This document shows, one piece after another, positions 10,096-49,650 of a stretch of 64,000 nt of DNA (the first letter of the stretch is position 1; the number at the start of each line of letters is the position of its first letter). Origin of the DNA: Clostridia bacterium (GTDB taxonomy: Bacteria; Bacillota; Clostridia; Christensenellales; UBA1242); assembly GCA_028709705.1 (NCBI GenBank), contig JAQVWL010000001.1:96855-160854 (forward strand), written 5' to 3'. Position numbers and translations under genes: made by a program. Under the pieces are notes generated by a model. The model was not told where the DNA came from. It did no database searches and saw nothing but the letters and a program-made list of their open reading frames with translations.

Positions 10096-10203
10096 GTGCG
10101 AAGCCTCGCACCCAAGATAATGCAATAAATTTTTGCAGATTTATGCAATTCACTGCGTGAATGCCATATGCCAACGCATATGCAATTTGCCTTTCGGCAA
10201 ATT
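10096..10203 (+). other. array of five back-to-back short stem-loops
   Basis: GTGCGA-agcc-TCGCAC (10096-10111). TGCAATAAAT/ATTTATGCA (10121-10147, one bulge). ATTCAC-tgc-GTGAAT (10148-10162). CATATGC-caac-GCATATG (10165-10182). AATTTGCC-tttc-GGCAAATT (10184-10203), which is followed by a T-run and is probably the terminator of the Rho-like gene. Confidence 0.7.
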
Positions 10204-10228
10204 AAGGTTTTTATTTTAAAAATTTATT

Positions 10229-10628
10229 AGTAGTAACGAAGGTAAACGGGGACGCTAGCAACTGACACGAAAGCGTTAGCGGAAGGGTCAGTTGGCTACG
10301 TCCCCTTGACACAGGCAAAAACTTGCCTTTGTGCTTGTTTTTTGTTTCACAAAAAAGCATCGCTTTATCAGGCAAGTTTTTGCTTTTACGGACCAAGCGA
10401 AAACCGCATTTCATTGGCGGTTTTGTCCGTACTTTTTTTTGAAAGCAGATGTTCCAAGAATTATTATCAAATTGTATTACAAAAAACAGGTCAAGGGGAC
10501 GTAGCACCCTTGACCGTTCGCCTACGGCTCCTGTCAATTGCTACGTCCCCGTTGACCTTCGCTCCCGTGTCAGTTACTACCGTCCCCGTTGACCTTCGCT
10601 TCGTGTCAGTTACTACGGACCCGTTGAC
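10229..10628. repeat. composite nested-palindromic repeat element, copy A
   Basis: Left arm: F unit GGTAAACGGGGACGCTAGCAACTGACACG (10241-10269) plus R' unit GGTCAGTTGGCTACGTCCCCTTGAC (10286-10310). Centre: 178 bp. Right arm: F' GGTCAAGGGGACGTAGCAC (10489-10507) plus three tandem R units (10531-10557, 10566-10594, 10602-10628) at a 36-37 bp period. F/R and R'/F' are reverse complements. Confidence 0.9.
10388..10440 (+). terminator. two-tier rho-independent terminator inside element A
   Basis: Outer stem ACGGAC/GTCCGT (10388-93 / 10425-30). Inner stem AAAACCGC/GCGGTTTT (10400-07 / 10417-24). Then T8 (10433-10440). Confidence 0.75.
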
Positions 10629-10659
10629 TTACATTATAAAACGCAAAAAGGCAAAATTC

Positions 10660-35074: not shown

Positions 35075-35145
35075 GGTCAAGAGGAGGAGAGTCAACTGAC
35101 TCTCCGCTCCCGCTCCCGTGTCAGTAACTAGCGTCCCCGTTGACC
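35075..35145 (-). repeat. half copy (left-arm type, minus orientation) of the palindromic repeat family, copy B
   Basis: CGTGTCAGTAACTAGCGTCCCCGTTGACC (35117-35145) is an R unit on the plus strand, equivalent to an F unit on the minus strand. The adjacent diverged R'-like part contains the self-complementary GGAGAGTCAACTGACTCTCC (35086-35105). No partner arm is present. Confidence 0.85.
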
Positions 35146-35164
35146 TTGTTTGATATTTCACAAC

Positions 35165-35193: not shown

Positions 35194-37164
35194 TTAAAAC
35201 CCAAACGAATCGAAATCCGGTTTGTTTCGTTTTAGCATTTTTGCGTTTCTTTGTTTGATGTCATAAAATACTTTTTCTTCTTCAAAAGGTTGGCATTTTA
35301 CATATTCATCTTCTGCAACTGTTTTGTCAAATTCAGGTGTTTTGTAGTATGGTGTAAACGCAGTTTTGATAGGATTTGTTTGAAATATTTTTACAATAGC
35401 AGTGCCATAAGGTAGTTGTCCCAACTCGTAAGGTCCAATAAGCGGTCTTGTGACCATTTGTGCGCTTGTTGTGGTTGATGTTCCTGTTTCTTTTTTGTCT
35501 GACTTGCTTGTTGATGTGTTTTTAAGTTCAAGGGAAATATCGCCACACATTTTTGAATATTCTTCTTTTGTTTTTTGGTCTTCTGTTCCCAAATAAATCT
35601 GAATGTTGCAGTTACCCCTAATAGTGTCAGCAGTTTCTTTGCCGTATTTGTTATCAAGTTGACTATATGATTGCACCACAAGTTCAAAAAAGATTTTTCT
35701 TGAACGAGCAACTGTGATAATACTATCCATTTTTTCAATTTTGGGCAAGTTTGCAAACTCATCAAGCAAAAAATAAACAGTTTTTGGCAATTCAAGATTG
35801 GGAGAAACGCTTGCCTTGTCTATCAGTTTTTTATAAATTTGAGAAATACACATAGTCGCCAAACAGTGTCTTGATTCTTTTTCATCTGGCACTTTGATAA
35901 ACAAAACAGTAGGGCGGTCAACAAAGTTATCAAAAATCATATCAGAATGACTTGTTGCATAACAAATACCACTATCTTGAAAAATTGAAATTCTGGAATA
36001 CAAAATACCCATATAACTTTTTGTTGTGCCGGGAGCATTGTTGATAGCGGTTGAAGTCAAAGAAGTAACTTTGCTAAACTTATCTCTACCCGAGCAATAA
36101 TCACGAAGTGTTCCATAAGGATTGTCAGGGTCTGGGTCTCTTGAAGTTGCAATTTTTGCAAGGTTATAGAAGTTATATTTTTCTTTTGTTAAGCCAAGTT
36201 CAGGGATAGCACTGTCTTCAAGCATTGCAAGCATCAAACCATACAAAAGGTCTTGCGCGCCCCTTTCCCAACTTGGGTCATTTTTGTTTTCAATAGGCAC
36301 AATGTTTATGGCAATTTCTCTTAACTCATTTTCTGCAATATCAATCATTTCTTGCTTTTTTGCGCGCAAGTCGTTGGTAAGTTGGGTTTTGTCAGAATAC
36401 GCCATTCCGTTATATTCATACCAAACATTACCAAAATCGTTTGAAGTAAGTTTTAGTTTGTATTGCGATGGTTTTCCACCGTTATGAATTTTTACTTCAT
36501 TTTCCAAATTTTTTGCTCTGTGGTAAGTGTCGTAAGCATTTGCCATTGGGTTCCAACGTGTTGAAGCAAATGGATTTCTTAAATCAAGAACCATCAAGTT
36601 GTAACCAAGATTTTTTAATTGTTTGCTATGTTTGTTATAAAGTTCGCCCTTTGGGTCAGTAACAACAAGGCAAGGCTTTTCAGCGGTGTTGGACAAAATT
36701 CTTATTGCAGGGTCAATAATAAGTGTTGTTTTACCAGAACCTGTTGTTCCAATAACAAGAGTATGTATTGGCTTGAACATATTTATATTCAATTTTCCAT
36801 TTTTTACCAAGTTTCTGATAACTATACCGCTTTTTTTGACCATAGGCAAAGTTTTGTATGTGTTATACATAAAATTTGGATTTGTTTCTAAATCTTTTTC
36901 AGTTACCCATTTTGCATCGTAATATTGTGAAATCTTGTCGCCCGCTTTTGTTGTTCCAACACCTGTTGAGGTGCTTGATTTTGTTTTTGTGTTGCTTGTA
37001 ATGTAAAGCAATGCAATGGCAAGACCTGCAAAACCACCAAAAAGCGCATAAGTGCTTGAAAATAACGAAGCAATGTCAGCAGTTCCTTCTAGATAAGCAG
37101 AAGCACCAACACCAATCAAATAAAATATTAAGGTTGCTATCATAATTTTTGAAAATGATTTCAT
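35194..37164 (-). CDS. type IV secretion coupling protein (VirD4/TraG/TraD family ATPase)
   Basis: 656 aa. Two N-terminal TM helices, YYDAKW motif, Walker A HTLVIGTTGSGKTT, VVTDPKGELY, LDLRNP..STRWNP, Walker B YFLLDEFANLP, SRKIFFELVVQSYSQL and GNCNIQIYLG. GGAGG RBS. Confidence 0.85.
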   Translation of the reverse strand: MKSFSKIMIATLIFYLIGVGASAYLEGTADIASLFSSTYALFGGFAGLAIALLYITSNTKTKSSTSTGVGTTKAGDKISQYYDAKWVTEKDLETNPNFMYNTYKTLPMVKKSGIVIRNLVKNGKLNINMFKPIHTLVIGTTGSGKTTLIIDPAIRILSNTAEKPCLVVTDPKGELYNKHSKQLKNLGYNLMVLDLRNPFASTRWNPMANAYDTYHRAKNLENEVKIHNGGKPSQYKLKLTSNDFGNVWYEYNGMAYSDKTQLTNDLRAKKQEMIDIAENELREIAINIVPIENKNDPSWERGAQDLLYGLMLAMLEDSAIPELGLTKEKYNFYNLAKIATSRDPDPDNPYGTLRDYCSGRDKFSKVTSLTSTAINNAPGTTKSYMGILYSRISIFQDSGICYATSHSDMIFDNFVDRPTVLFIKVPDEKESRHCLATMCISQIYKKLIDKASVSPNLELPKTVYFLLDEFANLPKIEKMDSIITVARSRKIFFELVVQSYSQLDNKYGKETADTIRGNCNIQIYLGTEDQKTKEEYSKMCGDISLELKNTSTSKSDKKETGTSTTTSAQMVTRPLIGPYELGQLPYGTAIVKIFQTNPIKTAFTPYYKTPEFDKTVAEDEYVKCQPFEEEKVFYDIKQRNAKMLKRNKPDFDSFGF

Positions 37165-37381: not shown

Positions 37382-37457
37382 AATTTTGTAAATATATTTG
37401 CGTTGCATAATGACAGATATTTTGCAAAGAATAATAAAAAACGGAGGGTTTTTTGAT

Positions 37458-37784
37458 ATGTACGATTTAGCAATAAGGTTTATGAGCGGGTTGATGTTTG
37501 TTGACACGGGGATTGAAGAAGGTGGAACTTGGGGTTGGGTTAACACTGTTGTTGCAGCAATCCAAGAGATACTTTGGCCTATTTTGATTGTTGTTGGCGC
37601 TGCAGGAATGCTTTATGCTGTTATAATCGGTGTTAATATGGCAAGAGCAGACTCAACAGAAAAAAAAGAAGAAGCCAAAAAAAGATTGATTAATGTTATT
37701 GTTGGTTTGGCAATTATTATTGCACTTATTCTATTCTTCCAATTGTTTATATCTGCAATTTTACCAGCTTTCTTTGGACAATAG
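37458..37784 (+). CDS. 108-aa two-TM membrane protein with VirB2/TrbC pilin-like topology (tentative)
   Basis: GGAGGG lies 9 nt before ATG 37458. Hydrophobic helices ILWPILIVVGAAGMLYAVIIGV and LINVIVGLAIIIALILFFQLFISAIL are separated by the charged loop ARADSTEKKEEAKKR. Divergent from the T4CP gene. The function call rests on size, topology and context only. Confidence 0.35.
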   Translation: MYDLAIRFMSGLMFVDTGIEEGGTWGWVNTVVAAIQEILWPILIVVGAAGMLYAVIIGVNMARADSTEKKEEAKKRLINVIVGLAIIIALILFFQLFISAILPAFFGQ

Positions 37785-47371: not shown

Positions 47372-48022
47372 ATGTTTACACCACAAGATGTTGCAAAACT
47401 TCGTGCTATGACAGGTGCGGGTATGATGGATTGCAAAAAAGCATTGACAGAATCTAATGGCGATATGGAAAAAGCAACTATTTGGCTTCGTGAAAAAGGT
47501 ATGTCAGCCGCTGCAAAAAAGGCAGACAGAATTGCCGCCGAAGGTCTTGTTCTTTCATACATTCATATGGGGGGCAAAATTGGCGTGCTTGTCGAAGTTA
47601 ACTGCGAAACTGATTTTGTTGCCAAAAGTGCACAATTTAACCAACTTGTAAAAGATATTGCAATGCAAATTGCAGCATCAAAACCACTTTTTGTTAATAT
47701 TGAAGATGTTGAACCCACCGCTTTGGAAGCTGAAAAAGAAATTTTAAGAAACCAAGCAATCAACGAAGGAAAACCAGCAAATATCATTGAAAGAATGGTA
47801 GAGGGTCGAGTAAAAAAATATTATCAAGATGTTTGTTTAACTGAACAACTTTTTGTAAAAGACACCAGCAAAACCATAAAACAAATTGTAAATGAAGCGA
47901 TTTTAACAATAGGCGAAAAAATTGCAATTCGTAGATTTGTTCGTTTTGAAATGGGTGAAGGCATTGAAAAAAGGTGCGATAATCTTGCAGAAGAAGTTGC
48001 CAAACAAATCGCAGGAAAATAA
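47372..48022 (+). CDS. tsf: elongation factor Ts (short form)
   Basis: [19 protein letters not shown] (UBA-like N-terminus) and [23 protein letters not shown]. Sits 1 nt after rpsB. Confidence 0.95.
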
Positions 48023-48108
48023 AAAACTCTTGCTATGCTTCGTTTTTGTCAAAATTTTTCGGCAGGGCAGTACCAAGAAGTACAGCCCCTACCCAAAAAT
48101 TTTGCCGA

Positions 48109-48131
48109 GCCTTGCCTGGCAAGTTTTTTTA
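48109..48131 (+). terminator. weak terminator after tsf
   Basis: CTTGC-ctg-GCAAG followed by T7. A second hairpin, GGGCAGTAC-caagaa-GTACAGCCC (48065-48088), lies upstream. Confidence 0.45.
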
Positions 48132-48144
48132 TTTCCCTGTATCA

Positions 48145-48364
48145 AGTAGCAAAGGTCAATGGGGACGGTAGTAACTGACACGTAGCGGAGGTCAACGGGG
48201 ACGTTAGCAACTGACACGGAGCAAAGCGGAGGGTAAGTTGGCTACGTCCCCTTGACCTGTTTTCTGTAATACCGCGTTTACGTGTCAAGGGGACGTAGCC
48301 AACATGACTCTAGGGCTTCGCCCTTCGCGTCAGTTGCTAGCGTCCCCGTTCACCCTTGCTACCT
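48145..48364. repeat. composite nested-palindromic repeat element, copy C
   Basis: F units at 48154-48182 and 48190-48218 (36-bp period). R' at 48232-48257, a 26-bp centre, F' at 48284-48303 and R at 48326-48354. The terminal ~38 bp, AGTAGCAAAGGTCAATGGGGACG..., is inverted at the right end (...CGTCCCCGTTCACCCTTGCTACCT). Confidence 0.9.
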
Positions 48365-48414
48365 ATTGACCACTTTCAAAAACAAGCCCTTGTGGTTTGT
48401 TTTTAGTACAACAA

Positions 48415-48456
48415 ACAAAAAACTTCCGTTTAAAATTTTTAACGGAAGTTTTTTTA
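48415..48456. terminator. bidirectional terminator after the U32 peptidase gene
   Basis: A-run, CTTCCGTT (48423-30) pairing with AACGGAAG (48441-48), then a T-run. It abuts the minus-strand stop codon. Confidence 0.8.
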
Positions 48457-49650
48457 AATCTTTTTTCTTAAAATGTCGCCTTGTTTTATTGGCAAGTCGG
48501 TTTCCAAATACAAAATTGACTGCACTTGTTTTGCATCGGTGATTTGTTCGCCGTTCTCATTTTTTATTTCTTTAACCAAAATCTGCATATTAAAAAGGGC
48601 AGAAGGTGAAAGAATTTCAAGCGTGTCGCCAACTTTAAAGCGGTTTCTTTGTTCAATTTTTATGTAACCATCGTTGTAACCTTGAAGCACCAAAGCCATA
48701 AATTCGTGCGTTTGAACGGGCATTGATGTTTCCAAACATTCCTTGTCTTTCGCACCAAAATAAAATCCGGTTGTGTATTGCCTGTGGCTACATTTTTGCA
48801 ATTCTAATTTCAATTCATCAAGTTTATTTTTGTTGTTTAATGCTCTATAATAGGCATTAACAACATTGGCAACATAATATTCGCTTTTCATTCGGCCTTC
48901 AATTTTGAAAGAAGTAACGCCTGCATCTGCAAGTTCCCCCAAATGTTCAATCATACACAAATCTTTTGAATTTAAAATATATGTGCCTTTGTCGTTTTCT
49001 TGAATTTGATATTGCTGACCTTTTCGGCTTTTTTCAGTAATTGTATATTCCCAACGGCACGCTTGAACGCAAGCCCCGCGGTTGCTATCTCGACCTGCAA
49101 GATAGTTGGAAAGCAAACATCTGCCAGAATATGAAATGCACATTGCACCATGCACAAAACATTCCAAATCAATATTGTCAGGGATTTTTGCCCGAATTTG
49201 TTTGATTTCGGCAACAGAAAGTTCACGGGCAAGAATAATGCGTTTAACACCCATTTCTGCCAAAAAGTTTATGGCATAACTGTTCAAAACATTTGCTTGT
49301 GTGCTGATATGTATTTCCATTTTTGGAGCAACTTTTCTTATAACAGAAACAATACCCAAGTCTGCAACAATAACTGCATCAACCTTTGTTTTTTGAAGGT
49401 ATTTAATATATTCTTCCAAGCCATCAAAATCATTTTCGTGTGCCAAAATGTTAATTGTAATATAAACTTTTTTGCGTAGTTTGTGTGCGTATTCCACTGC
49501 GGTTTTGATTTCATCATCATCAAAGTTGCCCGCAAAAGCACGCAACCCAAATTTTTTGCCCGCAAAATAAACCGCATCTGCTCCAAATTGGAATGCGGTT
49601 ACCATTTTTGTGTATGTACCAGCGGGTGCTAATAGTTCTATTTTTTTCAT
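48454..49650 (-). CDS. peptidase U32 family protein (YrrO/TrhP-like)
   Basis: ELLAPAG N-terminus and the U32 signature ECFVHGAMCISYSGRCLLS. 398 aa. Confidence 0.85.
   Translation of the reverse strand: MKKIELLAPAGTYTKMVTAFQFGADAVYFAGKKFGLRAFAGNFDDDEIKTAVEYAHKLRKKVYITINILAHENDFDGLEEYIKYLQKTKVDAVIVADLGIVSVIRKVAPKMEIHISTQANVLNSYAINFLAEMGVKRIILARELSVAEIKQIRAKIPDNIDLECFVHGAMCISYSGRCLLSNYLAGRDSNRGACVQACRWEYTITEKSRKGQQYQIQENDKGTYILNSKDLCMIEHLGELADAGVTSFKIEGRMKSEYYVANVVNAYYRALNNKNKLDELKLELQKCSHRQYTTGFYFGAKDKECLETSMPVQTHEFMALVLQGYNDGYIKIEQRNRFKVGDTLEILSPSALFNMQILVKEIKNENGEQITDAKQVQSILYLETDLPIKQGDILRKKI

Follow-up and report, generated by a model that had tools for sequence, protein, structure and literature searches.

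The tsf-U32 peptidase intergenic region

The window, i.e., the entire 64-kb stretch of DNA analysed here, has a GC content of 31.7% and carries a gene set of spore-forming Clostridia, with SpoIIR, YpeB and SipL domains, followed by rpsB-tsf, nusA-infB, truB and efp. Among 185,579 GTDB species genomes, the closest EF-Ts sequences, with 70% identity to that of the window, come from MAGs of uncultured Clostridia and Christensenellaceae. The repeat element that is the subject of this work, hereinafter copy C, lies within the 431-bp gap that separates tsf from the gene for a U32 peptidase, and its immediate surroundings are the following.

47372-48022, + strand: tsf, the gene to the left of copy C
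48111-48133, + strand: native intrinsic terminator of tsf, CTTGCCTGGCAAG followed by a T-run; part of the flank, outside the element
48377-48404, + strand: hairpin hp1, CAAAAACAAGCCCTTGTGGTTTGTTTTT; native right flank, homologous to positions 903-948 of contig L097 from a relative and to the first hairpin of module T (see below)
48454-49650, - strand: U32 peptidase gene, convergent with tsf, to the right of copy C

The sole ORF that overlaps copy C (48282-48542, 86 amino acids) extends beyond the element and continues antisense to the U32 peptidase gene. Copy C has a GC content of 55%, the window as a whole 32% and its non-ORF sequence 28.5%. Across the whole window, no Rfam family reached its gathering score, and an Rfam scan by E-value of positions 48000-48470 yielded only sub-threshold matches to miRNAs and sRNAs.

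Anatomy of copy C

Copy C consists of five copies of one core motif of ~29 nt, GGTCAA[C]GGGGACG[n]TAGyAACTGAC, arranged on the + strand as O> O> <I [27-nt loop] I> <O. Alignment of all units separates two subtypes of this motif, namely, the outer subtype O, AGGTCAACGGGGACGnTAGyAACTGACACG, and the inner subtype I, rGGTCAA-GGGGACG-TAGCCAACTGAC. The F units, the R units and the inner inverted repeats, which the earlier note treated as separate modules, are, as judged from this alignment, variants of a single motif in two subtypes. The element is built as follows.

48143-48178, + strand: O unit 1, the terminal 36-nt unit on the multi-unit side; core 48153-48182; nhmmer E = 8e-7
48179-48214, + strand: O unit 2, a tandem copy of unit 1 at an offset of 36 bp; nhmmer E = 1e-7
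48215-48230: linker 1, joining O unit 2 to the reverse I unit; its sequence differs among copies
48231-48258, - strand: reverse I unit, the core motif less two bases; nhmmer E = 2e-6
48257-48283: loop, 27 nt
48282-48309, + strand: forward I unit; nhmmer E = 9e-4
48310-48326: linker 2, which holds a small local hairpin, GGGC-TTC-GCCC, at 48313-48323
48327-48363, - strand: reverse O unit 3, terminal, on the single-unit side, ending in ...CCCTTGCTAC(C); nhmmer E = 1e-5

O units 1 and 2 share 83% identity; the spacing of exactly 36 bp between their cores (48154 and 48190) is as had been noted, and the one inverted unit of this type has its core at 48341-48354 on the minus strand. The inner inverted repeat also stands, with 20 of 20 positions paired (48237-48256 against 48284-48303), the spacing being 27 nt rather than the 26 given originally. 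The inverted termini proposed earlier are borne out as well: two 40-nt segments (48146-48185 and 48323-48362) are 83% complementary and provide the element with the MITE-like outline ascribed to it. The span itself had to be revised, from 48145-48364 to 48143-48363 (or 48140-48362), on the basis of unit homology and comparison with relatives. The loop segment 48258-48273 (on the minus strand, GTATTACAGAAAACAG) is homologous to the end of the centre of copy A and to the left edge of copy B, the two other members of this family in the window. The motif GGTCAAYGGGGACG, with up to two mismatches, occurs seven times in the window against 0.05 occurrences expected, and an nhmmer profile of the core detected 14 units, 12 of these in the window, at three loci only, and the rest in the contigs L081 and L082 that are discussed below.

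As RNA, copy C is predicted to fold with a minimum free energy of -125 kcal/mol on the + strand (z = -11.2) and of -120.8 kcal/mol on the - strand (z = -10.6), and none of 200 shuffled sequences folded as well. Lone 36-nt units have no palindromic fold of their own (z = 0.5 and 0.06 against shuffles); each O/I pair of ~70 nt, modelled as single-stranded DNA, forms a bulged hairpin of ~25 bp with -18 to -23 kcal/mol (z = -4 to -6). According to these models, copy C can adopt either one long hairpin, in which O unit 2 pairs with the reverse O unit, or three shorter ones. The hairpin that the earlier note expected upon transcription, with ~90 bp, would have a length of ~85 bp if read-through reaches the element.

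Two further copies in the window

The core motif is found at two other loci in the window, so that copy C belongs to the same family as these copies, as originally suggested, and the accessory block is not the only place where the family is found.

10228-10634, + strand: copy A, with O> (10230-10269), <I (10284-10312), module T (10313-10462), I> (~10478-10516) and <O <O <O' (10530-10634)
35075-35152, + strand: copy B, right half only, with the loop edge, a degenerate I> and one <O (core 35117-35146); orientation as in copy A

On the + strand, copy A thus reads O> <I [172 nt] I> <O <O <O'. Its best alignment with copy C is antiparallel, A 10474-10605 against the reverse complement of C 48143-48272, with 84% identity over 134 nt, so copy C is inverted relative to copy A; the remaining halves of the two copies are ~78% identical. 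When A and C are oriented alike, each has a lone O unit on one end and several O units in tandem on the opposite end. The bases that border the loop are likewise asymmetric, with CTTGACAC on one side and CAGGTCAAG on the other, and are the same in both copies. Because the asymmetric order, the ends and the loop-proximal bases all agree, the comparison points to a common ancestor element of A and C rather than to independent local hairpins. The number of O units on the multi-unit side varies, with two in C, three in A and one in B, and the internal units of copy A have GGAG or GAAG in place of GTAG. Copy B begins in the loop (TATTATAGAAAAACAAATG, then I>) and, being a right half that starts there, is a truncated copy.

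The block between complete copy A and half-copy B (10784-37164) contains two convergent giant ORFs, of 5263 and 2591 amino acids, the latter without a Pfam domain, as well as a small AmiS/UreI-like gene and a lone gene for a TraG/VirD4 coupling protein (35194-37164); a membrane ORF of 128 amino acids comes next (37398-37784). Since A and B have the same orientation, they are not the two ends of a composite transposon. The Gut-1 RNA model (RF01706) gives a sub-threshold match over its full length at 10118-10191 (E = 2e-4; score 32.6 bits, gathering score 50), immediately ahead of the terminator preceding copy A. In contig L091 (1-7362), where EF-Ts is 81% identical, another giant ORF, with more than 2453 amino acids, is found ~1.2 kb upstream of rpsB-tsf, so that giant genes recur near rpsB-tsf in this clade.

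Presence and absence of the element in other genomes

A conspecific strain is represented by Logan contig L082 (SRR28867354), in which the U32 peptidase is 99% identical to that of the window. Here the same site is occupied, with the same right flank, and the contig ends 43 nt into the element, the sequence up to that point, including O unit 3, being identical. The element is present in this strain and broke its assembly; a short-read contig that ends inside the element is what would be expected of a repeat that breaks assemblies.

Relatives with EF-Ts sequences 83-90% identical to that of the window (L084, with 90% identity, L085, L086-L090 and L097) keep the tsf stop region and the terminator, GCCGAGCCTTGCCTrGCAAGTTTTTTTATTT, and the element is absent after tsf in all of them. 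The bases of the right flank, CTATTnAC.CAC, are kept in L085 and L097, and the downstream hairpin in L097. The empty-site junction in L085/L097 reads ...GCAAGTTTTTTTATTTTCCTG joined to CTATTACACAC..., and on to the hairpin, or, in the longer reading, ...ATTTTCCTG joined to CTATTACACAC..., continuing to the hairpin GCAAAAACAAGTCCTTGTGGCTTGTTTTT. The corresponding filled site in the window is ...GCAAGTTTTTTTATTTCCCTG, then 221-223 bp, then CTATTGACCAC..., and on to hp1; in the longer reading, it is ...ATTTCCCTG, the element TATCAAGTAGC...CCCTTGCTAC, and CTATTGACCAC..., followed by CAAAAACAAGCCCTTGTGGTTTGTTTTT at 48377-48404. Because homologous sequence brackets copy C on both sides in relatives that are devoid of it, copy C is an insertion, and the empty-site comparison that the earlier note had called for, with the terminator kept and the element missing, favours this reading.

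The empty site is not perfectly clean, with ~38 nt between the junction and hp1 in L085/L097 that are missing in the window. The gene that follows tsf in these two contigs is not the U32 peptidase gene, and tsf-U32 synteny is not kept beyond the species, the place being taken in relatives by a pyrH-like gene, def, an ORF of 255 amino acids or another gene; the comparison of filled and empty sites rests on ~150 nt of conserved intergenic flanks and not on both genes. Between the tsf stop codon and the terminator, the window has a hairpin with 18-nt arms that are 89% complementary (48046-48105); its counterpart in L084 (880-945) and L085 (1030-1090) is a different hairpin, GACAGTCATTTAGG...AACTAAACTCCTGC. 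This stretch is a replaced segment between otherwise conserved flanks.

A contig from a JGI metagenome, L081 (sample 3300014203, the same sample as L084), starts inside an O unit at a different locus, the neighbouring ORFs of which we take, by eye only, to be truA- and PFOR-like. Hence one O unit at another locus in a related organism can be added as a copy beyond the window, of the kind that the earlier note had sought.

Termini and target site

The multi-unit end of copy C is placed at 48143, where CAAG stands in place of the CACG of internal unit boundaries, and the other end at 48362/48363. On the two sides, there are trinucleotides that bear on the mode of insertion.

48140-48142: left TAT, which may be the left member of a 3-bp target duplication or else the initial bases of the element
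48364-48366: right TAT, found once at the matching place in L085/L097 (CCTG-C-TAT-TAC)

TAT is present on both sides of copy A, too (10225-10227 and 10635-10637). Both complete copies, A and C, have GTAG/CTAC at their ends, and the distance from TAT to GTAG...CTAC varies between 1 and 3 nt in these two copies. TATCAA is common to the ends of C and B and so may belong to the element. An insertion between G and C, without duplication, aligns to L085/L097 without any indel. With two complete copies to compare, a TAT duplication and a duplication-free insertion would fit the sequences equally well.

The tsf terminator, hairpin hp1 and module T

In the earlier note, the similarity between copies A and C was extended upstream, so as to include the terminator-like hairpin and its T-run. 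This part of the claim has to be abandoned: the terminator is kept in relatives that lack the element and is therefore the native terminator of tsf. The similarity between A and C upstream is weak, amounting to 71% over 83 nt, partly inside the units, and it is not homology of the elements because the left end of C corresponds to the right end of A, so that non-equivalent ends are being compared.

Nor is copy C a compact version of copy A, given that the extra 150 nt of A are a separate repeat, module T.

Module T, ~150 nt: window 10313-10462; L084 1001-1150; L089 1986-2116; L097 608-759

Downstream of tsf in L084, L089 and L097, module T is found free of O and I units, in two positions relative to the terminator, and it is present in L089 and missing in L086-L088 and L090, all of which encode identical EF-Ts. 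The loop of C, read on the minus strand, is ACGTAAACGCG followed by GTATTACAGAAAACAG, and the centre of A is AC, module T and ...GTATTACAAAAAACAG. Because module T is a separate, polymorphic repeat, copy A is an element of the C type whose loop has received module T as an insertion.

Module T comprises two hairpin domains, five pairs that show compensatory changes and, at its 3' side, a terminator-like hairpin with ACTTTT behind it. No Rfam family matches module T, which may represent a mobile gene for a small RNA or a terminator cassette. Its first hairpin (GCAAAAACAAGyCCTTGTGGyTTGTTTTT) is also found alone downstream of the tsf terminator, in the window and in L097, where it may be either a native target or the left end of module T. 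In L084, ~65 nt of hairpin plus terminator after tsf (897-960) recur as a direct repeat beyond module T (1205-1267), at the contig end; module T may thus be flanked by a true duplication, or the repeat may have arisen in assembly.

Searches for the family elsewhere

An exact search with a degenerate 26-nt pattern gave no matches in 185,579 GTDB species genomes and one, L081, in JGI metagenomes. Three patterns had no match in viral contigs, and blastn with the element found nothing in plasmids and a single meaningless 34-nt match in phages. The core profile detected no units in ~57 kb from relatives with 79-81% tsf identity and none in 80 GTDB loci. By these searches, the repeat family is apparently lineage-restricted and matches no known sequence family among those searched. 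No transposase or recombinase gene was detected among the scanned ORFs of the window, a set from which the 5263-aa ORF and short ORFs were left out, and no autonomous parent with these ends was present in this set.

Several other identities were considered and rejected. The segment GGGGACGTTA of the motif resembles the 5' end of Bacillus tmRNA; the likeness stops after 10 nt, and ARAGORN finds no tmRNA or tRNA in the window. For attC, the TTAC/TCAA ends of IS608 and CS-6 of ssoA, the needed positions or arrangement of the consensus do not fit. The arrangement is not that of a CRISPR array, the two 36-nt units abutting without a spacer and the other units being inverted. It is not an inverton either, which would have an invertible segment of ~100 bp or more between its inverted repeats: the inner repeats of C are 27 nt apart, and no recombinase is found among the scanned ORFs of the window.

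Comparison with known repeats and mobile elements

The family described here is new, is of a known kind, that of small palindromic interspersed repeats, and belongs to none of the named families; it does not constitute a new kind of system. In transposons such as IS21, Tn7, Mu and Tn402, the ends contain unequal numbers of subterminal transposase-binding repeats. These ends, and those of the plant MITE Emigrant (PMC1636448), appear to resemble the present element in the use of one site of ~30 nt in unequal numbers at the two ends, here one unit versus two or three, but are not known to have the additional inward-facing inverted pair of the same site that is seen here.

In architecture, and in architecture only, the closest counterparts are the BOX elements of Streptococcus pneumoniae, boxA-boxB(n)-boxC. 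The BrickBuilt type of MITEs is also close, and both are modular repeats with variable numbers of tandem internal units and MITE features (PMC3049150, PMC4596501). Like the present element, BOX is small, modular and intergenic, has end modules that pair into a stem-loop, and is of narrow host range (PMC3049150); it also shares an internal module of ~36-45 nt in a variable number of tandem copies, here two, three and one O units in C, A and B. However, BOX is composed of three unrelated boxes, whereas here one motif forms the tandem module, both ends and the inner repeat; furthermore, the tandem array is terminal and forms part of the stem, and the host is a Clostridia MAG and not a Streptococcus, so that we do not assign the element to BOX.

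With MITEs (Correia, RUP, Nezha, BrickBuilt), the family shares terminal inverted repeats, a size of ~220 bp (here 221 bp), a lack of coding capacity, strong base-pairing and the presence of multiple dispersed copies, as well as the absence from the matching site in relatives; BrickBuilt, in particular, has tandem units without spacers between small inverted ends (PMC4596501). By contrast, classic MITEs are AT-rich (PMC3049150), and the present element, with 55% GC in a genome of 32% GC, is not; in addition, there is neither an established fixed target duplication nor a known parent insertion sequence with matching ends.

REP sequences, BIMEs and REPINs are comparable in that they are GC-rich extragenic palindromic units, the inverted doublets of which form a long hairpin (PMC3337134, PMC3116915), with GTAG/CTAC ends and, possibly, no target duplication. 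The inverted doublet typical of REPINs is found in copy C, where O>/<I and I>/<O are reverse complements around the 27-nt loop. Unlike REPs, however, the units do not form palindromes on their own, the hairpins have about three times the size, the host belongs to a different phylum, and no RAYT gene is found among the scanned ORFs of the window.

Possible origin and mode of spread

Considering these observations together, we find it reasonably probable that copy C is a member of a lineage-restricted family of small, non-coding, GC-rich interspersed repeats of nested palindromic structure that are mobilised non-autonomously; the evidence base comprises three loci in the window and one outside it. 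Under this scenario, copy C would have been inserted between the tsf terminator and the pre-existing downstream hairpin, most likely by non-autonomous transposition, with mobility supplied by an enzyme acting in trans. The core motif would serve as the putative binding site for a transposase or recombinase whose gene lies elsewhere in the genome, and slippage would lengthen or shorten the tandem array of outer units, in the same manner as for the boxB modules of pneumococcal BOX elements. The class of the enzyme would depend on the target site: a TAT duplication would point to a DDE transposase, and the lack of a duplication to an HUH/RAYT-like enzyme with the bulged hairpins as its substrate. 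We infer no host function for copy C.

The second of these possibilities can be developed into a distinct scenario, which we consider unlikely, in which the element is REP/BIME/REPIN-like and is mobilised as single-stranded DNA by an HUH tyrosine transposase (RAYT or a TnpA of the IS200/IS605 type) that recognises the bulged O/I hairpins and inserts without duplication. The O/I pairs indeed fold as bulged single-stranded hairpins of ~25 bp, and the two hairpins are inverted as in a REP doublet, in accord with the definition of REPINs (PMC3337134); moreover, they are GC-rich and located outside genes in an AT-rich genome, A and C have GTAG/CTAC at their ends, and the L085/L097 junction is compatible with an insertion between G and C that left no duplication. 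Yet a single 36-nt unit is not palindromic, the hairpins, at ~70 nt, are much larger than REPs, and GTAG is not kept in the internal units of copy A, where GGAG or GAAG is found instead. The scanned ORFs of the window include no Y1 transposase. The REPIN/RAYT systems have been described mainly in Proteobacteria, which also weighs against this scenario.

It is improbable, in our assessment, that the element serves the host as a structured RNA, the transcribed double-stranded hairpin being a terminator, an insulator, a 3' stabiliser or a target of RNase III, and that it spread by recombination and not by transposition. Such roles are known for ERIC, Correia and BOX elements (PMC3049150), both strands are predicted to form very stable folds, and all copies lie within ~10-25 nt of intrinsic terminator hairpins. 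Nevertheless, little transcription is expected at C because there is a good tsf terminator upstream and the genes are convergent; the relatives manage without the element at the tsf site; no Rfam family matches; and covariation cannot be demonstrated in this case because the arms are near-identical copies of one motif. A similarly improbable proposal is that a hairpin-dependent recombinase not yet described, of the HUH type or otherwise, recognises the 29-nt motif in this uncultured lineage of Clostridia, making the family a REPIN-like replicator outside Proteobacteria, with the loop as a landing pad for other DNA; if that were true, module T in copy A and the 24-kb block of giant genes and TraG that abuts the loop edge of copy B would be examples.

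Very improbable is the proposal that the motifs are an array of binding or recombination sites used by a site-specific recombinase or a regulator, such as an invertible switch ahead of the two giant genes at A and B, with C as a bystander or a decayed copy. This proposal draws on the position of A and B immediately upstream of the 5263-aa and 2591-aa ORFs and on the perfect 16-bp inverted repeats in A, which flank a 172-bp segment with a promoter-like site and a terminator-like hairpin. The 172-bp segment, however, is explained as the inserted module T, the inner repeats of C are only 27 nt apart, too close for inversion, with no gene there to regulate, and no recombinase gene is found among the scanned ORFs of the window. 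Finally, a locally evolved palindrome or chance similarity, which could be entertained on account of only three visible loci, is effectively refuted by the occurrence of the motif seven times against 0.05 expected, by the alignments of 77-84% over more than 100 nt between loci, by the absence of the element at the matching site in relatives and by the copy at another locus in another organism.

Implications

The significance of the family is chiefly practical. It breaks short-read assemblies of an uncultured lineage of Clostridia, with two public contigs ending inside it, and the element marks differences at the level of strains or species in otherwise conserved core regions. The correct anatomy, namely, one nested motif, a terminator outside the element and copy A as a nested insertion, guards against mistaking these loci for a regulatory RNA or a switch. 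If the mobilising enzyme is found, a GC-rich, multi-site palindromic repeat from Firmicutes would join a catalogue that is mostly proteobacterial and streptococcal.
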